Shown here: piece by piece, positions 25,527 through 37,598 of the stretch
Numbering within the stretch: position 1 is the first letter of the stretch
Layout of the letters: each line of letters begins with the position of its first letter
Program-made: the position numbers and the translations under genes
Source of the DNA: an uncultured Clostridium sp.
Lineage (GTDB): Bacteria > Bacillota > Clostridia > TANB77 > CAG-508
Length of the DNA stretch: 64,000 nt
Reading direction: 5' to 3'
Assembly (NCBI GenBank): GCA_905213875.1
Contig: CAJMJN010000003.1
Span: 3,565 to 67,564, forward strand
The notes under the pieces: model-generated
Told to the model about the DNA's origin: nothing
The model's database searches: none
What the model saw: only the letters and a program-made list of their open reading frames with translations

Positions 25527-26237
25527 ATGATTAAATTTGCACTATGTGATGATAGTATTAATATTCTGGAAAAAGTTTCGAAAATGCTCGAAACTATCTT
25601 TAATGAAAATAATTTTAATGCTGTAGTAGCTTATTCATCTACAAATACCAATGATATGTTAAATTATATAAATAACAATAAAATAGATGTTATTATTTTA
25701 GATATAAATATAAACTCAAATAAAGATGGTTTAAATTTAGCAGAGTTCATACGAAAAAATAATAAAAATACTTATATTATTTTTTCAACCGGTCATTTGG
25801 AATATATTATGCTAGCATATAAGTATAAAACATTTGATTATTTAGCTAAGCCTCTTACTTATGATCGACTGAGCGAAACTATTGTTAGACTGTTTGAAGA
25901 TATAAATGGACAAACCACAAAATATATTAGAATCGACAATAAAAATACTTTAATTGACGCCTCTGAAGTACAATTTATAAAAAGAGACGGAATGAAATTA
26001 GTTTTTCACACTACTACTCGTAATTATGAAAGTTATAATTCTTTTAATAAAATCCAAAACAGCTTACCAACCAATTATAGAAGATGTCATAAATCTTGTA
26101 TTGCAAATATATTACAGATAAAAGATATTGAACCTGTATCTAATACTATTACTTTTAAAGATGGAAGTATTTGTAGTATGGGTCCTAAATATAAGTCTGA
26201 TATAATGGAGGTTTTACAAAATAATGAGAACATTTAA
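25527..26237 (+). CDS. LytTR-family (AgrA-like) response regulator
   Basis: A receiver domain with acidic pocket CDD and phospho-Asp in VIILDINI, followed by a C-terminal LytTR-type domain (..IRIDNKNTLIDASEVQFIKRDGMKLVFHT..). Confidence 0.85.
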   Translation: MIKFALCDDSINILEKVSKMLETIFNENNFNAVVAYSSTNTNDMLNYINNNKIDVIILDININSNKDGLNLAEFIRKNNKNTYIIFSTGHLEYIMLAYKYKTFDYLAKPLTYDRLSETIVRLFEDINGQTTKYIRIDNKNTLIDASEVQFIKRDGMKLVFHTTTRNYESYNSFNKIQNSLPTNYRRCHKSCIANILQIKDIEPVSNTITFKDGSICSMGPKYKSDIMEVLQNNENI

Positions 26238-27192
26238 TTTTATTCTTTTTCATAGATTCACATATTTTACAATAATTTATTTTTTCTCTGTAATTACTAT
26301 TATGTCAATCAGTAACAGAACTTTACAGATTAGTTTTTCAAATATTCCTGCAAAAAAAAATTTGTCAATTATAGTTATAAATTTATTTTTAGGTATGTTA
26401 ACTTTAATTGTTCATGCTATAATGATATTTCATTACAGATATAAATTGCCAATATTTATTATTTCATTAAATTTAATTTCTTTACTAACATATTTCTTTA
26501 TAATCATTTATAGCTTAAGCAAAAATTTATTATCAGTATCAAATACAATTCAAAAAATGTCTACTTTGGAATATTATAATACAAGTTTACGTACTTTGTA
26601 TGATGGTGTTCGAGGATTTAAACATGATTTCGATAATATTGTTACCACAATTGGTGGATATATAAAAACAAATGATACATATGGATTACAAAATTACTAT
26701 GATCATCTAAATTTTGATTGTCAAAAATTAAACACTATTTCTTTATTATCACCTGAAATCATTAACAATCCAGGCATTTATAGTTTATTATCTAAAAAAT
26801 ATCAATATGCTATCGAAAATAATATAAAAGTAAATCTTTCTTTTATGCTTGATTTAAGTTCTTTGCATATGAATGTTTATGAATTTACTAGAATCCTTGG
26901 TATTTTATTAGATAATGCTATTGAAGCAAGTGCAACAAGTAATGAAAAAATAATTAATTTAACTTTCAGAAATGATATTAGAACTTCTAGACAATTAGTA
27001 ATTATTGAAAATACATATTCTAATAAAGATGTAAATACTGAAAATATATTTGAAAAAGGAATTTCTTCTAAAGATAATCACACAGGTCTTGGTTTATGGA
27101 CTGTTAAAAAAATTTTAAGCAAAAATCACAATGTCAATTTATCTACTTCCAAGGATAATAAATTCTTTTCACAACAACTTGAAATATATTAA
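26224..27192 (+). CDS. AgrC-like (HPK10) sensor histidine kinase
   Basis: About 4 N-terminal TM helices, an H-box VRGFKHDFDNIV, an N-box LLDNAIEA and a G-box GLGLW. It overlaps the regulator gene by 14 nt. Confidence 0.8.
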   Translation: MRTFNFILFHRFTYFTIIYFFSVITIMSISNRTLQISFSNIPAKKNLSIIVINLFLGMLTLIVHAIMIFHYRYKLPIFIISLNLISLLTYFFIIIYSLSKNLLSVSNTIQKMSTLEYYNTSLRTLYDGVRGFKHDFDNIVTTIGGYIKTNDTYGLQNYYDHLNFDCQKLNTISLLSPEIINNPGIYSLLSKKYQYAIENNIKVNLSFMLDLSSLHMNVYEFTRILGILLDNAIEASATSNEKIINLTFRNDIRTSRQLVIIENTYSNKDVNTENIFEKGISSKDNHTGLGLWTVKKILSKNHNVNLSTSKDNKFFSQQLEIY

Positions 27193-27207
27193 TGTAATAA
27201 CTAAAAT

Positions 27208-27231
27208 AGCTTGTATCTATTGATACAAGCT
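27208..27231. terminator. perfect hairpin AGCTTGTATC-TAT-TGATACAAGCT (terminator for the kinase and, ancestrally, the tRNA)
   Basis: A 10-bp stem followed by a T-rich run. It partly lies inside the attL repeat. Confidence 0.7.
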
Positions 27232-27263
27232 ACTTTTATTGATTATTTCTTTGGTAGCGAAGA
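27220..27263. repeat. attL: 44-bp perfect direct repeat
   Basis: TTGATACAAGCTACTTTTATTGATTATTTCTTTGGTAGCGAAGA is identical at 37555-37598. Its last 12 nt equal the tRNA 3' end. Confidence 0.9.
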
Positions 27264-27803: not shown

Positions 27804-28754
27804 ATGAGTTATGCAATAATTAGAAATGCAAATTACAAAAGAGATAATTTAGCAGGACTATATAAACATAACGAAAGAAAAAATACTAATTATTCAAATA
27901 AAGACATCAATAAAAATAGTTCTATAAAAAATTATTCATTAAAGCAATGTAATACAACATATTCTAATGCTATAAAAAAATTACAGCAAGAAAATAACTT
28001 ACAAGGTAGAATTATAAAAACTACAAATATAGCTTGTGAATTTATCATTACTTCTGATAAAGAATTTTTTGATGCAATCGGAATAGATGAAACAAAAAGA
28101 TATTTTCAAACTGCTTACGATTTTGTTGCAAATTATAAAAACTTAGGCGAAAAATACATTATATCTGCAAAAGTTCATATGGACGAATCAACACCACATC
28201 TTCACTTAGTTTTTGTTCCTGTTATCCATACTAAAGATAAACAAGGAAACACAATTGATAAAATTGCTTGTAGCCAATATTGGAAAGGAAAAGATAGTTA
28301 TAGACAATTACAAGATAAATTTTATTCTTATATGACTGAAAACGGATTTGATTTAGAACGTGGCAATACTAAAGATAATACCCATATTCCTATTGAAACT
28401 TTGAAGCAAATAACTAATTATGAAAATATAAAATATGAATTATCTAACGAACAAATTAAATCTATTTCCACTAAAAATACTAATTTAATATTACAGCAAA
28501 ACAAAGAATTAATACAATATACAAATAAATTAAAATTACAACTTAGTAAAACATATCCATTAATTAATAAAGCTGAACAATTACAAAAAGAAAATACTTA
28601 TCTAAAGACTGAAAATGTAAAATTAAAAACAGAAAATAATAGATTAAAAAATTATATTGATAAAACCTTTGAGGTCGTAAAACATCTTTTTAATTTTCCT
28701 TCTGGAATTTTAAAAAATATTGTAGATGATTTTATCAAACATTTTGAAAAATAA
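27804..28754 (+). CDS. mob: MobV/Pre-family plasmid recombination/mobilization relaxase
   Basis: 316 aa. The N-terminus is MSYAIIRNANYKRDNLAGLYKHNERK. HMDESTPHLHLVFVP is the HxDE..PHxH metal motif of Mob_Pre relaxases. The C-terminus is coiled-coil. Confidence 0.85.
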   Translation: MSYAIIRNANYKRDNLAGLYKHNERKNTNYSNKDINKNSSIKNYSLKQCNTTYSNAIKKLQQENNLQGRIIKTTNIACEFIITSDKEFFDAIGIDETKRYFQTAYDFVANYKNLGEKYIISAKVHMDESTPHLHLVFVPVIHTKDKQGNTIDKIACSQYWKGKDSYRQLQDKFYSYMTENGFDLERGNTKDNTHIPIETLKQITNYENIKYELSNEQIKSISTKNTNLILQQNKELIQYTNKLKLQLSKTYPLINKAEQLQKENTYLKTENVKLKTENNRLKNYIDKTFEVVKHLFNFPSGILKNIVDDFIKHFEK

Positions 28755-30338: not shown

Positions 30339-30393
30339 TAAATGCAACAAAATACAGCATATATATTTTATATATGCTGTATTTTGTTGTATT

Positions 30394-30738
30394 TTACTTA
30401 CTATATTCATATTTTATGATTCTTGAAATTTCTTCAATTATATTTTTATTAGTAAAATAATATTTATTATAATCATATCCAAATATTTTTTTAAAATTAG
30501 TTATTGACTTTTGTTCTTCTCTATTATCTATGGCATATTTTATAGAATTTCTAATTTGTGTAGAATTTAAATTATCATATTTATTAGCAATATTTTTATA
30601 TACATTTTCAAAAATTATAAATTCATTATTACTATTTACAACAATTTGTATAGCTTGTATTAATAATTTAGTCCCTTTTAACGATGGCGATAACCCTAAT
30701 TCCATTAATATATTGTAAATTGTTATTATATAATTCAT
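30394..30738 (-). CDS. stand-alone Spo0A C-terminal (DNA-binding effector) domain-like protein
   Basis: LMELGLSPSLKGTKLLIQAIQIVVNSNNEFIIFENVYKNIANKYDNLNSTQIRNSIKYAIDNR...FKKIFGY aligns position for position with B. subtilis Spo0A [64 protein letters not shown]...SSLFGY. No receiver domain is present. Confidence 0.65.
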   Translation of the reverse strand: MNYIITIYNILMELGLSPSLKGTKLLIQAIQIVVNSNNEFIIFENVYKNIANKYDNLNSTQIRNSIKYAIDNREEQKSITNFKKIFGYDYNKYYFTNKNIIEEISRIIKYEYSK

Positions 30739-30966
30739 TTTTCTAACTCCTAAATTCTATCTTTTACAAATACTATACCAAAATTATTTTTCTTTTTCAA
30801 AATATAAAAAATTACATGCTATGCAATAGATTTTACACATCACGTAATTTTTTTTACTAAATTCTATTATATTTATAATAATATTTCTTAATTTTAACTC
30901 TAATATTTGTAAATTCATAAAATGTTACTTTTTACGTAATACTTTATAAATTTATATAAAAAATAC

Positions 30967-30985
30967 AGGAGACCAACAAATGGAA
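30967..30985. repeat. 19-bp inverted repeat, left copy (AGGAGACCAACAAATGGAA)
   Basis: The perfect reverse complement lies at 31186-31204, 200 bp away. Confidence 0.85.
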
Positions 30986-31185
30986 AAAGCCCCTGTATTT
31001 TTTCTCTAGATATTTCTACCTAAAGCTATATAATTAATTTAAATTATTGCAACTAATTTAAATTAACTAACTTAATTATACTAAAGATATAAATAAAATT
31101 CAATATATTTAAAATATATAGGGGGAATTTTCCCCCTTTTTCTTATGCTCCTGGACTTCCGACCATCTAAGCAAAATTCTCTTTC

Positions 31186-31204
31186 TTCCATTTGTTGGTC
31201 TCCT
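31186..31204. repeat. 19-bp inverted repeat, right copy
   Basis: TTCCATTTGTTGGTCTCCT. Confidence 0.85.
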
Positions 31205-31456
31205 TTCACTATATTCTATAAGTAATTTTCAATTATGATAAAAGAAGATAACAAATGTCATTCTTACAAAGTCCAAGCAGTTGCAATGCTTGAATTTCAA
31301 ATCATAATTGAATACAAGTATTGCAAACTTGCAAAATAGCTTTTAGCCATTCCATGCTTATAGTATTTTAATTATACCATATTTTACCAGTATCTTCAAT
31401 AAAATCTTTTATATTATGTAAAGTTGTGATATAATATATATATTAGGGGTGATTAT

Positions 31457-32176
31457 ATGTCCATTTTTAGTAAAACTGATTTTGGTGAAAATATTAGGAA
31501 ATTTCGAAAAGCAAGGGGATTAAGTCAAGAAAACCTGGCTTTAATTTTAAATAAAACTTCTGCCACAATTGCAAGATATGAAACTGGTGAAATAATTCCA
31601 AATGCTGAACAAATTCATTTGATATGTGATGCACTAGGAATATATGAATATGAGCTTTTTAATAATAGTCAAAAAATTATCAATACTGAAACTATTAACA
31701 ATCCTTTTAATACGGATATTCTCTATTTATATTATATAGCATATTATCCAAAATCTAAAAAATATGGTAAAGCAAAATTTAGGTTAAAACTTACTTCAAA
31801 ACCAGACTTGTGTAAAGTAGATTTTATGGAATATAAAAAAGATTTTATCTACCTTTCTGGTTATTTACAAACTGACAATCATATTGCTGTATTTGTCTTT
31901 GAAAATTACAAAGAAAATAATTTTCGATTTGAATTATCGCATCTTATTGTCAATATTGCAAGAGGTACTAACTCTCCTATGCTTGGTACTTTTCATTGTA
32001 CTAATGGTGAATATGTTCCTAGCATACGCAAATGTATTGTATCAAAAAAAGATTTAGACTTTACAGATGATTTACTTGAAAAAATAAAAATTACCGAATT
32101 AGAAAAACAAAATTTGAATAACCACAATATTTTATATCTTGATATTACTGATACTTATGATTTTGAAAATCTTTAA
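31457..32176 (+). CDS. XRE-family HTH regulator with an unknown C-terminal domain of about 170 aa
   Basis: The N-terminus FGENIRKFRKARGLSQENLALILNKTSATIARYETGE is a Cro/C1 HTH. An extended -10 TGATATAAT lies upstream. Confidence 0.75.
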   Translation: MSIFSKTDFGENIRKFRKARGLSQENLALILNKTSATIARYETGEIIPNAEQIHLICDALGIYEYELFNNSQKIINTETINNPFNTDILYLYYIAYYPKSKKYGKAKFRLKLTSKPDLCKVDFMEYKKDFIYLSGYLQTDNHIAVFVFENYKENNFRFELSHLIVNIARGTNSPMLGTFHCTNGEYVPSIRKCIVSKKDLDFTDDLLEKIKITELEKQNLNNHNILYLDITDTYDFENL

Positions 32177-32266: not shown

Positions 32267-32845
32267 TTAATTTTTATTATCTAATATTTTTTCTGCTCTT
32301 GCTAATAAACTCTCATCTTTTTCTATACTATCCATACTAATTTTTATATCTTTTTTTAATATTTCATATTCATCAGTAGTTAAATTTTCTTCTTCTAATA
32401 TTCTTAGAATTAAATCATAAAGTCTTTTTTCATAATTTTTTAATGGACTTTTCGTTATTTCTACAATACCAGTATCCTGTTCATTTTTTGATTCTTCTAA
32501 TATATCTTCATACTCTTCTGGATAAAACTTCTTTATTATTGCTACTCTTTTAGCATCTTCTTCTTTTAATTGAGCTATTTGCTCATTTATAAATGGATCA
32601 TCTCCTTTTTGCACTTCAGCTGTTTCATATTTTGATGTTATATTTTCATTTGAAATATTATTTTTAGCAAATTCTTCCTTTTTAGCTAATGCATTATTTT
32701 TTTCTTGGATATTTGCCTCCTCTATCTCCTTATCCGTCGGAAAGTGTACACTTATAGTTTTTGAGGCATAAATTGCAATAGGAATTACTATTACCGCTAT
32801 TATAACTATTATTAAGAGTATAATTAATTTAGTTTTCTTTTTCAT
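32267..32845 (-). CDS. membrane-anchored Glu/Lys-rich hypothetical protein
   Basis: 192 aa with an N-terminal TM helix (LIILLIIVIIAVIVIPIAIYA). It lies immediately downstream of the lectin-amidase gene. Confidence 0.5.
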   Translation of the reverse strand: MKKKTKLIILLIIVIIAVIVIPIAIYASKTISVHFPTDKEIEEANIQEKNNALAKKEEFAKNNISNENITSKYETAEVQKGDDPFINEQIAQLKEEDAKRVAIIKKFYPEEYEDILEESKNEQDTGIVEITKSPLKNYEKRLYDLILRILEEENLTTDEYEILKKDIKISMDSIEKDESLLARAEKILDNKN

Positions 32846-32866
32846 AAAATTCCCCCTTTATAATTA

Positions 32867-34024
32867 CTAAAATAAATAAAATAAAAAATATTCATCTGGA
32901 TAACTTCTACATATATCTAATAAACTTTTATTCAATACATTATTTGAATGATATGTCAATAAATATGTATTATTAGTACCATCATTTACATAGCCTGATA
33001 CATACATACTATGATGGGATTCTCCTAAGCTTCCATCTGATTTTCTATTCGCCATCTGTATTACATCGCCTTCACTAAATGGTATATTCCATGCTAGTGC
33101 TGGATTTTCTAAGATTTGACTACCAGTAGCTTTATAACCTGCCGAAATATTATTTTTCCAATACTCCCTAAACTCTTGAGCACTAATCCATGGGCTTGGA
33201 TCTGTTGCTTCCCAACTCTCATTAAATTGGTATCTAGATGGTGTACTATATTTTGTATTTTTCCTATGAATATTCCAATTATCTCTCATATGAATGCCAG
33301 ATGCAAGCATCGCTTGTGAAACAAAATTAGTACAATCTCCACCCATATTAGTTAAATTTGGATATGCTGGAACATATGAATTATAGTTATCCATTGCATA
33401 TTTAGCTCCTAAATCAACATCTTTTTCTACTGGTTCCAGTATCCAACGTTCATTCCAAGCACCAATATAATTGTATTGATGTACATTCTCACCTAAATCA
33501 CATCCTGCATTACAAGTAGAAATTGCTTTAGTATAATTACTTACTTTAGTTACTATAACATAAACTGCTGAATCAGTTCCTCCTATTTTAAATTTTTGTG
33601 CATCTGTTCCATTATATTCATATATATGAACATTTGCTCCATTTTCTGTACTTGCATTAGAAATATCTAAAACCATGTTATTTCCCACATTCGAAAAAAA
33701 TGAAAATGTTCCATCATTATTATAATTAATATACCACCTTTGTGCATTTGTACCATTATATTTATATTGATGAACATTAGTTCCGTTTGTGCTTTGGCCG
33801 TTAGAAACATCTAAATACTGTCCTGAAAGTGCATTTTTTATATAAAATGTTTTATTCATTATGTGATATATCAAATTATCTGAAGTTATTCTTGCATTAT
33901 TATCTTCTCCTAAAAAATTAAGTTCCTCTAGTTTTTGAATATTTTCTTTTGCTAATACTTGATTTTGAAATAGCAAGAAAATTGTAATTGCTATATATAT
34001 TATAATAGCTATTCTTTTCCTCAT
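32867..34024 (-). CDS. secreted ricin-type beta-trefoil lectin fused to a putative cell-wall amidase/peptidase domain
   Basis: 385 aa with a signal peptide. There are three QxW-like repeats (AQRWYI, AQKFKI, NERWIL). The C-terminal block GGDCTNFVSQAMLASG resembles the putative amidase (Amidase_6-like) catalytic Cys motif. Confidence 0.6.
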   Translation of the reverse strand: MRKRIAIIIYIAITIFLLFQNQVLAKENIQKLEELNFLGEDNNARITSDNLIYHIMNKTFYIKNALSGQYLDVSNGQSTNGTNVHQYKYNGTNAQRWYINYNNDGTFSFFSNVGNNMVLDISNASTENGANVHIYEYNGTDAQKFKIGGTDSAVYVIVTKVSNYTKAISTCNAGCDLGENVHQYNYIGAWNERWILEPVEKDVDLGAKYAMDNYNSYVPAYPNLTNMGGDCTNFVSQAMLASGIHMRDNWNIHRKNTKYSTPSRYQFNESWEATDPSPWISAQEFREYWKNNISAGYKATGSQILENPALAWNIPFSEGDVIQMANRKSDGSLGESHHSMYVSGYVNDGTNNTYLLTYHSNNVLNKSLLDICRSYPDEYFLFYLF

Positions 34025-34761: not shown

Positions 34762-35085
34762 ATGTGTATTGAACATTTAGAAAATGCAATAACAATGCAA
34801 TCAGCTAAAAACAAATTATTAAATAGTTGGAATTGGATTTGTTGCAATGATGGTTCAGGATATTTACAAAGTCCAAATGGAAACTCTTATTTTCATTACG
34901 ACTGGTCGACTACTGAATATAAACATACTAATAAAGATTCTTATTCTTTATGGGGTACTAGAAATGATGATGGCACTTCTACTACTTTCAAAGATTTTCA
35001 AGAATATGCTGAACAATATGTTATTAAACATTATTTAAAAACTAATAATTTAGAGGTATTAAAAAATGAAGAAAATGAAAGATAA
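34762..35085 (+). CDS. hypothetical protein (Trp/Tyr-rich)
   Basis: 107 aa, tightly coupled to its neighbours. No family was recognised. Confidence 0.45.
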   Translation: MCIEHLENAITMQSAKNKLLNSWNWICCNDGSGYLQSPNGNSYFHYDWSTTEYKHTNKDSYSLWGTRNDDGTSTTFKDFQEYAEQYVIKHYLKTNNLEVLKNEENER

Positions 35086-35578
35086 TAAAATTTATTTTAA
35101 ATGCAAAAACCATAATTCAATTAGAGTTCTATATAAAAAAGTTGGAAAAGCTCCTGAGATTAAAATTATTTCAAATGTTTTTACTCTAAAAAAAGCGATT
35201 ATAAAAAAGCAACTTACTATTATTCCTTATGAGGGTGCCTATATAATTTGTAATAATAATAAATTTAATAATTTTATGAGAACTAACATTATTTTACCTT
35301 TAAGAACTATAAGGGGGGATTTTATCCTTGTTAATATTGATAAAAATGAACGAGAATTTAAATCATTATCTCAAGAAGATGTTTTATGGTTTACAAAAGA
35401 TCTAATTAATAAAACTCCCCTTTCCTCTTCTTCATCTACTATAAAATCCTCTGTTTTATCTACTTATTCTAAAACGTTTGATAATTCTAATAATAGATAT
35501 ATTAGTTTTGAAAAACTTTTAATTGATGTATTAATAAATGTTCAAACAATTTTATCTAATATATCAAAAAAATGTTAG
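35066..35578 (+). CDS. hypothetical protein
   Basis: 170 aa. It overlaps the upstream ORF by 20 nt. No family was recognised. Confidence 0.45.
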   Translation: MKKMKDNKIYFKCKNHNSIRVLYKKVGKAPEIKIISNVFTLKKAIIKKQLTIIPYEGAYIICNNNKFNNFMRTNIILPLRTIRGDFILVNIDKNEREFKSLSQEDVLWFTKDLINKTPLSSSSSTIKSSVLSTYSKTFDNSNNRYISFEKLLIDVLINVQTILSNISKKC

Positions 35579-35630: not shown

Positions 35631-35900
35631 ATGAATAATATTAATACTTCAAATTTAATTGATACAAAAGAAAACAAAAATTCAAATGAACAAGTAGTAA
35701 TAAATTATTTAAATAGAATAACTAATCCTTTTGCTATATTATCTGTTCAAGATGTTTCTAAAGATTTACATATTGGAATAAACCAAGCTTATGACTTATT
35801 TAAACAAAATGATTTTCCAACTATATGTATTGGTAAAAGAAAAACTGTAACTTTAGCAGCATATTTGCTTTGGAAAATGTCTACAAAAGGAGGTGTTTAG
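35631..35900 (+). CDS. xis: excisionase-like / MerR-type HTH DNA-binding protein
   Basis: 89 aa. ILSVQDVSKDLHIGINQAYDLFKQNDFPTICIGKRKTV resembles an HTH_17/Xis motif. It lies directly upstream of int. Confidence 0.6.
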   Translation: MNNINTSNLIDTKENKNSNEQVVINYLNRITNPFAILSVQDVSKDLHIGINQAYDLFKQNDFPTICIGKRKTVTLAAYLLWKMSTKGGV

Positions 35901-35901
35901 T

Positions 35902-37110
35902 ATGGCTCAAAAAGGATTGGGCGAAGGTTATGTGTTTTTTAATAAACAAAGAAAAAAGTGGAATGCACAATATCGAGATTATGATATAAATACTGGAACT
36001 TTAAAATTGAAAACTAAAAGTTTTAAAACAAAAGAAGAAGCAAAAAAATATTTAAGTACAATTATGTACCAAAAAGAAAATCCTATATATGTAGAACATC
36101 ATGGAATACCGCTTTGTGAACTTATGCGAGCAAATTTAAAATTTAAGTTAGATACTAACTTAATAACTGCTACACAATTTTCAAGAGTATCTACTACAAT
36201 TGGAGCTTTAGAAAAATTACCTATTGGAAACAAAAAAATTGATGAAATAACATCAACGGAAATACAAACATATCTTAATTCTATTAGTAATTTAAGTAAC
36301 TCATCAATTAAGAAAATCTATGGACAATTTGTCCAAGCCTTTAAAATAGCCATGAATAAAGGTTATATAATGAAAAACCCAATGAACACTATTATAAGGC
36401 CTATCAGTCAAAAGCAGGATAAAAAAGTTAGAGCATTAACTTTGGATGAACAGCAAGCTTTTACCGACTATCTTTTAACTAAAGACATAAAGCAATGTAA
36501 ATACAAAAATGTATTTTTAATTCAAATGTATATGGGATTAAGAGTGGGCGAAGCTTTGGCTCTTACTATGAATGATGTCGACTTAAAAAACAAGAAAATA
36601 AACATACATAGAACATTGACTACAGATGAAAATAATGAAACCATAATGGGAAATAAAACTAAGACCTATGCAGGAATGAGAGTTGTACCTATTCCAGAAG
36701 TTATCCATCCTTATGTGATAGAGCAAATGAATATTGCAAACACTCAATATAATAATGATGAAAAGCTCTTATTTAAACCATTAAATCATAACTATACCAA
36801 AAGAACAAATGTAAATTCTGAATTGCATAGAATATTGAAAAGAGAATTTGATATAACAGATATTTCTACACATAGTTTACGACATACATTTGGGACAAGA
36901 TGTATTGAAAGTGGTATGGCTCCTGTGGTTGTTCAAAGATTAATGGGGCATACAGATATAGGTGTTACTTTAAATACATATACTTCTGTTTTTGATAAAT
37001 TTAAAGAAAATGAAGTTAACAAAGTAAATCAATATTACTTAAATAATAATTTGGTTTCAAACAATACTAATTTAATTGATAGTACAATATCAAATGAACA
37101 TGAAAAATAA
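35902..37110 (+). CDS. int: tyrosine site-specific integrase
   Basis: ATG at 35902 follows AAGGAGG. The catalytic region reads GLRVGEALAL, ..HSLRHTFGTRC.. and ..LMGHTDIGVTLNTYTSV (R, HxxR, H, Y). Confidence 0.9.
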   Translation: MAQKGLGEGYVFFNKQRKKWNAQYRDYDINTGTLKLKTKSFKTKEEAKKYLSTIMYQKENPIYVEHHGIPLCELMRANLKFKLDTNLITATQFSRVSTTIGALEKLPIGNKKIDEITSTEIQTYLNSISNLSNSSIKKIYGQFVQAFKIAMNKGYIMKNPMNTIIRPISQKQDKKVRALTLDEQQAFTDYLLTKDIKQCKYKNVFLIQMYMGLRVGEALALTMNDVDLKNKKINIHRTLTTDENNETIMGNKTKTYAGMRVVPIPEVIHPYVIEQMNIANTQYNNDEKLLFKPLNHNYTKRTNVNSELHRILKREFDITDISTHSLRHTFGTRCIESGMAPVVVQRLMGHTDIGVTLNTYTSVFDKFKENEVNKVNQYYLNNNLVSNNTNLIDSTISNEHEK

Positions 37111-37439: not shown

Positions 37440-37554
37440 GATTTATGAAATAAAATAAAAATCCGTTAAACCATTGATATTACTAGTGAAAATTAATTTT
37501 TATAAATTATATAAAATTTATAGTAGTTGCAAACAACAAAACAGCCTGTATCCG

Positions 37555-37598
37555 TTGATACAAGCTACTTTTATTGATTATTTCTTTGGTAGCGAAGA
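37555..37598. repeat. attR: 44-bp perfect direct repeat
   Basis: Identical to 27220-27263. It overlaps tRNA positions 37587-37598. Confidence 0.9.

Follow-up and report, generated by a model that had tools for sequence, protein, structure and literature searches.

Mobile DNA of gut bacteria has been reported to carry spo0A homologues. In gut Firmicutes, PF08769 was among the domains enriched on mobile genetic elements (MGEs) (Jiang et al., 2019; PMC6907783), and spo0A homologues from gut phages and viromes were found to be truncated to the effector domain and were proposed to control sporulation independently of signals (Schwartz et al., 2023; PMC10294663). Another mobile-element protein connected with Spo0A is DevI of ICEBs1, which delays sporulation, inhibits the expression of biofilm genes and likely has Spo0A as its target (Jones et al., 2021; PMC8032392). 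Here we describe a gene for a 114-amino-acid (aa) protein of the Spo0A_C fold in a 64,000-nt stretch of contig CAJMJN010000003.1 of an uncultured Clostridium sp. (GCA_905213875.1); this whole stretch is called the window, and all coordinates are window positions. The gene lies on a 10.3-kb element, which is a small integrative mobilizable element (IME). With the gut phage and MGE homologues it shares the effector domain alone, the location on a mobile element and an origin in gut spore formers, and because of the two surveys both the observation of such a protein and the hypothesis put forward in the initial annotation, an interference with host sporulation, were already known as a kind. It differs from the phage homologues in that its family resides on an IME, with no phage genes in the 10.3 kb, and the DNA-contact residues, gene context and regulation considered below were not covered in the published work. 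DevI, too, comes from a mobile element of a spore-forming host and could affect Spo0A-dependent development, but its sequence is unrelated to that of the 114-aa protein and it is cargo expressed upon activation of the integrative and conjugative element (ICE).

On balance we favour the view that the protein is the element's own transcription factor, acting in a switch made up of repressor, RNA and regulator. In layout the locus resembles CI/Cro- and ImmR-type switches: a long XRE-type helix-turn-helix (HTH) protein with a C-terminal domain (239 aa, hereafter XRE239) is encoded divergently from a small HTH protein, the promoters stand back-to-back and the integrase operon lies on the repressor side. 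Unlike in those switches, the small partner has the Spo0A_C fold rather than a Cro/XRE or ribbon-helix-helix fold, and the intergenic region is ~750 bp long and contains an RNA module; neither an ImmA-like protease nor an S24 peptidase domain was detected among the open reading frames (ORFs) of the element.

A stand-alone Spo0A_C domain and its recognition helix

The gene and its translation start are as follows.

30394..30738, minus strand: gene for the Spo0A_C-fold HTH protein, 114 aa, ATG start, stand-alone domain
30747..30751, minus strand: Shine-Dalgarno (SD) sequence AGGAG of this gene, 8 nt 5' of the ATG, predicted from the sequence

The encoded protein is a full-length, stand-alone Spo0A_C domain without a receiver, a relationship far beyond chance. 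The Pfam family Spo0A_C (PF08769) matched residues 7-105 over profile positions 1-101 of 104 with an E-value of 8.7e-12 and 45.4 bits (gathering cutoff 25), and the profile search placed the protein in this family, not in an unrelated HTH family. Against PDB sequences, phmmer identified the B. subtilis Spo0A-C/DNA complex 1lq1 (E 2.5e-5) and Spo0A-C in 1fc3 (E 7.5e-5); the alignment extends over residues 5-110 and contains the recognition-helix pairing STQIRNSIKYAI quoted in the initial annotation, whose report of a whole-length alignment including this region is thus confirmed. An AlphaFold2 model built on an alignment of 26 family sequences had six helices and a mean predicted local distance difference test score (pLDDT) of 94.6. 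In a Foldseek search of the PDB with this model, 1lq1 and 1fc3 were the only entries with a probability of 1.0 (template modelling (TM) scores of 0.66-0.81, mostly 0.73-0.81), the next matches all having E >2. The predicted HTH is formed by helices 43-51 and 59-71, with STQIRNSIKYAID as the recognition helix. Like Spo0A-C (PF08769; 1LQ1, 1FC3), the protein therefore combines a six-helix fold with an HTH and aligns end to end, and it is unlike Spo0A-C in its low identity (20-27%), its different recognition helix, the missing receiver and its location on a mobile element. At 114 aa it is too short for a receiver domain and consists of the effector domain alone; the Spo0A equivalog model TIGR02875 scored 35.8 bits against a cutoff of 200, with a match confined to the C-terminal part of the model. 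The absence of a phospho-receiver noted in the initial annotation holds, and the protein is not controllable by phosphorylation of a receiver of its own. In the window's copy, a deletion (30739-30775; columns 45-80 of alignment A2) takes away a ~13-aa N-terminal extension found in relatives.

The residues with which the domain would read DNA differ from those of Spo0A. The recognition helix is Q-I-R-N-S-I-K-Y-A-I-D, compared with R-V-E-R-A-I-R-H for the Spo0A counterpart, and takes the form Q-[IV]-[RK]-N-x-I-K-Y-A-I-D throughout the family, whereas receiver-linked Spo0A and both PDB sequences keep V-E-R-x-I-R-H-A-I-[ED]. In B. subtilis numbering, E213 is replaced by R/K, R214 by N, R217 by K and H218 by Y, so that the comparison of DNA-contact residues suggested in the initial annotation turns out against a Spo0A-like contact set; I216, A219, the F-G-Y motif and T-N are common to the family and Spo0A-C. 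E213, R214 and R217, positions invariant in receiver-linked Spo0A, are reported to make the base-specific contacts (1LQ1; Zhao et al., 2002). Spo0A contacts G2, C4 and G5 of the 0A box TGTCGAA (PMC3485338).

An exhaustive profile search for Spo0A_C-like proteins returned 503 representatives, most of them stand-alone proteins of 100-130 aa, with true Spo0A appearing first at ~E 1e-6. In the 208 domains contained in the best 150 of these representatives, ~100 different combinations were found at the three key recognition-helix positions, which indicates that the DNA specificity of the Spo0A_C fold has diversified. The E-R-R triad was present in 43 of the 208 domains, including some in receiver-less proteins; the family of the 114-aa protein falls outside it, in the R/K-N-K/N classes. 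Of the stand-alone domains in this sample, those with E-R-R would alone be credible as 0A-box readers. Seven proteins of 340-1003 aa (P0109, P0123, P0138, P0139, P0141, P0170 and P0225) contain three to seven tandem Spo0A_C-like domains whose recognition-helix triads are all different, and P0167, P0169, P0172 and P0173 contain two such domains and no receiver. To our knowledge, this tandem multi-domain architecture has not been described.

A scan for 0A boxes found no TGTCGAA in the element and two sites in the whole window, both far from the element, a number equal to chance. The relaxed form TGNCGAA occurred 10 times in the window against ~10 expected, inside the element only within coding sequences or the tRNA, and neither form was present in the promoters or regulatory DNA of the element. 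No genuine spo0A signature is encoded within the window.

These data bear on the proposal of the initial annotation that the protein is a constitutive or competing 0A-box binder, which would activate, block or retime host sporulation without the phosphorelay. The Spo0A-C fold without a receiver is what such a protein would have, the host context is that of a spore former, and the E-R-R triad is kept in some receiver-less Spo0A_C proteins. Moreover, the isolated Spo0A DNA-binding domain binds legitimate targets unphosphorylated (PMC3485338), the same proposal has been made for the truncated spo0A homologues of gut phages (PMC10294663), and mobile elements do manipulate sporulation, as with DevI (PMC8032392). 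Nevertheless, we regard the proposal as unlikely. The family has R/K-N-K in place of E-R-R and Y for H218, with one charge reversed and one arginine lost; identity to Spo0A-C does not exceed 20-27%; 0A boxes occur at chance rate and in none of the element's promoters; and the gene, which is not cargo, behaves like a core regulatory gene in a dedicated control module with promoters of the sigma-A type (see below). Judged from the sequences, a 0A-box-competitor model is not supported for this family because of the non-Spo0A recognition helix and the chance-level boxes. An effect on sporulation by DNA binding of altered specificity or by protein contacts is still compatible with the in silico results.

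A core gene of a family of small mobilizable elements

The element is bounded by direct repeats of the attachment (att) type, 61 nt long, 93% identical and spaced 10,335 bp apart, and is classified as an IME because att repeats, integrase and relaxase are present and conjugation and phage-structural genes are absent: no type IV secretion system or coupling-protein domains and no phage-structural genes were found among the ORFs of the 10.3 kb. Its features outside the control region are the following.

27203..27263, no strand: left att repeat, 61 nt
27804..28754, plus strand: Mob_Pre (MOBV-type) relaxase, 140.5 bits
28961..29569, minus strand: accessory membrane-anchored pseudo-receiver, 202 aa, with Asn at the phospho-acceptor position
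30344..30390, no strand: bidirectional intrinsic terminator with a 20-bp stem, common to the Spo0A_C gene and the convergent HTH_26 gene
31457..32176, plus strand: XRE239, with an N-terminal Cro/C1-type HTH and a ~170-aa beta-rich C-terminal domain of unknown fold; candidate repressor
32267..34024, minus strand: cargo, a 192-aa membrane protein and a RicinB-lectin/Amidase_6 protein, both missing from copy L060
34362..34760, plus strand: small protein resembling sigma-70 region 4 (weak match), kept in the close subfamily
35066..35578, plus strand: DUF3846 protein, kept in the element family
35631..35900, plus strand: 89-aa ORF, candidate excisionase (Xis-like), directly 5' of and overlapping int
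35893..37110, plus strand: tyrosine integrase, 405-aa ORF (402 aa as called in copy L061)
37538..37598, no strand: right att repeat, overlapping the 3' end of tRNA-Met (37587-37663, minus strand)

Two small XRE proteins are also encoded in the element. The location on a mobile element stated in the initial annotation is confirmed by the att repeats, the integrase, Mob_Pre and the occupation of two chromosomal sites. A protein identical to the 114-aa protein was found in 292 blocks of a metagenome collection, and the same element with this identical protein is inserted at the tRNA-Met site in one copy (L061) and beside radA/disA in three others (L060, L062 and L063); being found at two chromosomal sites, the element is mobile. 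L060 lacks the 192-aa membrane protein and amidase genes and is otherwise identical, which identifies both genes as cargo. Of the 61 nt of the att repeat, 12 lie in the tRNA and the other 49 span the terminator hairpin 3' of the tRNA, so that integration duplicates the terminator.

The element is flanked by yqfD and a YabP/yqfC-type gene, and the host is probably spore-forming, as the initial annotation had assumed. An agr-like pair of genes (LytTR response regulator and GHKL histidine kinase; 25527-27192, plus strand) lies outside the element, ending 11 bp short of the left att repeat; L061 has it at the same site. In the copies at the radA/disA site the integrase is called as a 350-aa and a 68-aa ORF, which may reflect a frameshift or a variant C-terminus, and in L063 a ToxN-type toxin gene lies just beyond the element. 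The pseudo-receiver protein consists of an N-terminal transmembrane segment, a coiled-coil-like stretch and a receiver with DIIFSN in place of DVIFMD (Asp to Asn); together with a downstream 49-aa ORF it is restricted to the window's element lineage. The idea of a split Spo0A, in which this protein would serve as the separate receiver of the effector, was rejected: it is membrane-anchored, has Asn as phospho-acceptor and is missing in all other elements of the family.

A word-indexed search gave 81 clusters of relatives of the 114-aa protein, 97-138 aa long and 45-72% identical, all of them Spo0A_C-only and unnamed. In a scan of one genome per species, relatives were present at 56 loci, all in metagenome-assembled genomes (MAGs) of uncultured Clostridia, most of them from the gut, with human, rabbit, deer, chicken and mouse as sources. 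No relatives were found in IMG/VR; tblastn against GenBank phages gave one marginal hit (30% identity, E 9e-3), tblastn against phage and plasmid collections gave only marginal matches at 28-30% identity, and PHROG matches were weak. Synteny was assessed by tblastn of the window's element proteins against 59 fetched loci. The XRE239 gene was adjacent to and divergent from (head-to-head with) the Spo0A_C gene in 36 of them, and integrase was found in 32, Mob_Pre in 30, DUF3846 in 21 and the sigma-like gene in 11. By the same comparison, with which the gene calls of L001-L003 agree, hardly any element outside the lineage of the window's element has the receiver-like protein, the small XREs or the amidase. 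The position of Mob_Pre relative to the Spo0A_C gene varies between subfamilies and the pairing with XRE is constant. XRE239, strictly 239 aa long and 76-83% identical in the best 120 of 237 clusters, exceeds the Spo0A_C protein in conservation. Hence the Spo0A_C gene belongs to the core of a family of 8-10-kb IMEs in low-GC, uncultured gut Clostridia, and XRE239 is its constant partner: the Spo0A_C gene is not cargo, since its synteny with XRE239, integrase and Mob_Pre is kept and the accessory neighbours vary. The identical gene is likewise retained at both insertion sites of this element, in copies that carry the cargo and in the one that lacks it.

Core status might also be expected of an architectural or accessory factor for recombination or transfer, such as a recombination directionality factor or an accessory protein of the relaxosome at oriT. 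Small HTH proteins often serve in these functions, and the gene is a small core gene beside the core Int, Xis-like and Mob_Pre genes. We consider such a role improbable: a separate Xis-like ORF stands directly 5' of int, Mob_Pre changes position between subfamilies while the pairing with XRE is kept, and the Spo0A_C gene has an elaborate transcriptional and RNA control region of its own, typical of decision regulators.

The control region and a putative antisense-RNA-like module

The XRE239 and Spo0A_C genes are separated by 718 bp in the window and by 740-840 bp in relatives. Identity in this region is 78% in the close subfamily (nine loci) and 69% in the distant one (ten loci). Consensus scans and alignments of the minus strand predict the following features, listed from the XRE239 gene towards the Spo0A_C gene.

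31408..31435, plus strand: promoter-like site of XRE239, back-to-back with P1
31371..31399, minus strand: promoter P1, TTGAAG-17-TGgTATAAT, extended -10
31315..31331, minus strand: hairpin H1, loop UUGCAAU
31272..31294, minus strand: hairpin H2, 7-nt loop UUGCAAC, exactly complementary to the loop of H3
31183..31204, minus strand: arm A, comprising the SD (AGGAG) and ATG (31191-31189) of a tiny ORF, MEEREFCLDGRKSRS...
31120..31137, minus strand: G/C hairpin AGGGGGAAAATTCCCCCT at the end of the tiny ORF, terminator-like on both strands
31075..31103, minus strand: promoter P2, TTGAAT-17-TATAAT, kept in both subfamilies
30956..31068, minus strand: putative ~110-nt small RNA from P2, with H3 (7-nt loop GUUGCAA), H4 and terminator T2 (13-nt loop, U-run)
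30967..30988, minus strand: arm B, the T2 loop and 3' stem, the exact complement of arm A
30803..30856, minus strand: long, imperfect palindrome with TTACGT/ACGTAA-type half sites; candidate operator and/or third terminator
30772..30800, minus strand: promoter P3 of the Spo0A_C gene, TTGAAA-17-TGgTATAGT, extended -10, kept in both subfamilies

P1, P2 and P3 look sigma-A-type, with no sign of sporulation-specific control. The only 10-mer kept across both subfamilies is ATGGTATAAT in P1, and a k-mer search for operators common to both subfamilies found only this -10 box. The palindrome upstream of P3 is followed by a T-run that abuts the -35 element; in relatives its arms are ~20 bp long and perfect, and its half sites differ by subfamily (TTACGT-type and CTGCA/TGCAT-type). 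The palindromes and T-run could act as paired operators or as a terminator/antiterminator. One palindrome arm recurs in part ~100 nt upstream (~30925-30940; columns ~655-680 and ~775-830 of alignment A3). Relative to its relatives, the window has also lost ~22 nt between the XRE promoter and P1 (31400-31440; columns 777-815 of alignment A2), including a TAGAGnCTCTA palindrome.

The P2 small RNA has a predicted minimum free energy of -35.2 kcal/mol (z = -6.3), and its RNAalifold consensus shows compensatory changes in 10 of 32 pairs, with a strand-specific G.U pair in T2 in 12 of 14 sequences. The loops of H2 and H3 are exactly complementary in 22 of 25 loci, through seven co-varying variants of the H2 loop (TTGCAAC, TTGCGAC, TTGCACC, TTGCGAT, TTACGAC, TTGCGAG and TTGAGAC). 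The second long-range pair joins the SD/ATG arm to the T2-loop arm, which form a perfect inverted repeat of 10-22 nt (15-22 in most) in almost every locus, exceeding shuffled sequences in 14 of the 15 loci tested; the arm sequences were distinct in 17 of 17 variants and matched across loci in 1 of 272 comparisons. These counts of long-range pairs are anchored by register, as arm lengths differ among loci. The P2 RNA and its complementary sites thus make up a putative antisense-RNA-like module, to judge by sequence, in which each element would have its own private pairing specificity, and in which expression and repression are presumed. The module occupies 30956-31400 of the window and recurs between the two genes in L001 and L004-L048.

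The tiny ORF has a strong SD, and its conservation is limited to the first ~15 codons. Its candidacy as a type I toxin was rejected: the peptide is not hydrophobic but basic, and no reading frame is kept beyond ~15 codons. For the same reasons its conservation is probably at the level of RNA.

The closest counterpart of this module is the immI region of phages P1 and P7. There, as reportedly found by Citron and Schuster in 1990, c4 RNA controls icd and ant by short loop complementarities that differ between P1 and P7. A c4 antisense RNA system of this kind is established for P1 immI (PMC8201110). As in c4, the putative RNA of the element is small, structured and on the strand of its target, two of its loop segments are complementary to that target, one of these segments spans the ribosome-binding site of a small ORF that precedes a regulator gene (in P1/P7 the anti-immunity regulator), and element specificity shifts through compensatory changes. 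Unlike in c4, there is no similarity of sequence or to Rfam families, the RNA gene stands downstream of its target with its own promoter, the downstream gene has the separate promoter P3 and encodes a Spo0A-fold protein rather than Ant, and the host is Gram-positive. No Rfam family matched the P1-P3 control region; below threshold, the only hits were to the terminator hairpin that follows the Spo0A_C gene, plus one chance-level L20-leader match. The module is accordingly an analogue of c4 and not a member of the C4 family.

Perfect inverted repeats of 15-22 nt that lie ~200 bp apart around P2, are homogenised in any one element and differ from element to element, in an element that encodes a tyrosine recombinase, could also flank an invertible DNA switch for phase variation, with no RNA pairing involved. 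This we hold to be very unlikely. In all 25 loci examined, the segment enclosed by the arms is oriented alike, and this constancy together with the strand-specific G.U in T2 favours RNA pairing over inversion. One arm coincides exactly with the SD and ATG and the other exactly with a terminator loop, the second co-varying pair sits in two hairpin loops, G.U pairs in the stems are strand-specific, and P2 and the U-run terminator delimit a discrete small RNA.

A proposed regulatory switch and its meaning

In the switch that we favour, the Spo0A_C gene would be transcribed from its own sigma-A-type promoter P3. XRE239, CI-like, would keep the element quiescent, its gene heading the side that encodes the sigma-like protein, DUF3846, Xis and Int. 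The transcript from P1 would pair, through a hairpin loop and the SD/ATG of the tiny ORF, with two loops of the P2 small RNA, which would thereby block translation of the tiny ORF and confer element-specific immunity. The Spo0A_C-fold protein would form the opposing arm, as an activator or a Cro-like factor on element promoters, recognising a sequence other than the 0A box. That the protein binds DNA, which promoters it targets, in which direction it regulates them and what XRE239 and the RNA do are all inferred; conservation and covariation are the basis of what is said here about how the RNA and the whole switch function. The initial annotation had also suggested that the protein might regulate the element according to host developmental state; regulation of the element itself is the part of that annotation that fits best, a link to host developmental state being hypothetical.

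Several observations weigh against this interpretation. About a quarter of the loci with sufficient flanking DNA lack XRE, Int and Mob; most of these look decayed or fragmentary, being truncated genes, gene fragments or copies beside transposase or recombinase genes. All hosts appear to be spore-forming Clostridia, a distribution compatible with a link to sporulation. The AlphaFold2 model of XRE239 is poor (overall pLDDT 54, ~30-50 in the C-terminal domain), and its role as repressor is assigned by analogy alone because the C-terminal domain has no usable model. The k-mer search and the inspection of palindromes identified no binding site for the Spo0A-fold protein, and the palindromes upstream of P3 would suit a dimeric XRE protein at least equally well. 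The assignment of E213, R214 and R217 as base contacts relies on the contacts reported for 1LQ1 and on conservation, and K in place of R217 together with the kept I216, A219 and F-G-Y leaves room for a partial overlap with the functions of Spo0A.

These kept residues also bear on the possibility that the protein acts on the host by protein contacts, titrating sigma-A/sigma-H or pairing with the Spo0A effector domain through its F-G-Y surface, or by way of other host promoters. Throughout the family, F86-G87-Y88, N81 and F82 vary little or not at all; they align with L235-F236-G237-Y238 of Spo0A, in the region described as activating sigma-A (PMC4690370), and the element encodes a sigma-region-4-like protein as well. 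The conserved residues may, however, be mere structural core, the candidate partners are hypothetical, and the conserved association with the XRE gene and the RNA module suggests that the protein works inside the element; we therefore rate action on the host by these routes as rather unlikely.

More tentatively than the role as the element's own transcription factor, it is possible that the Spo0A-fold protein, XRE239 and the same-strand antisense RNA constitute an undescribed three-component switch for decision and immunity, widespread in small mobilizable elements of uncultured gut Clostridia, in which each element has a private RNA pairing code and the Spo0A_C fold serves as a generic regulator of mobile elements. 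If this is true, the Spo0A effector domain belongs to a much larger HTH family of diversified specificity, which includes the tandem multi-domain forms.

What is new here is the specific IME family, the core-regulator Spo0A_C protein with its non-Spo0A recognition helix and, as the freshest part, the antisense-RNA-like module upstream of it. The published reading of such proteins is that they hijack sporulation; for the family of the window, the DNA-reading residues and the genomic wiring argue instead for a regulator internal to the element. Since both point inward, the presence of Spo0A_C should not be equated with a function in sporulation unless the recognition helix has been checked. The element family is common in gut metagenomes and carries a compact regulatory system of ~1.8 kb, made up of a repressor-like gene, an antisense RNA module whose pairing is element-specific and a Spo0A-fold factor, and this system could account for both the immunity and the activation of small mobilizable elements in uncultured Clostridia.

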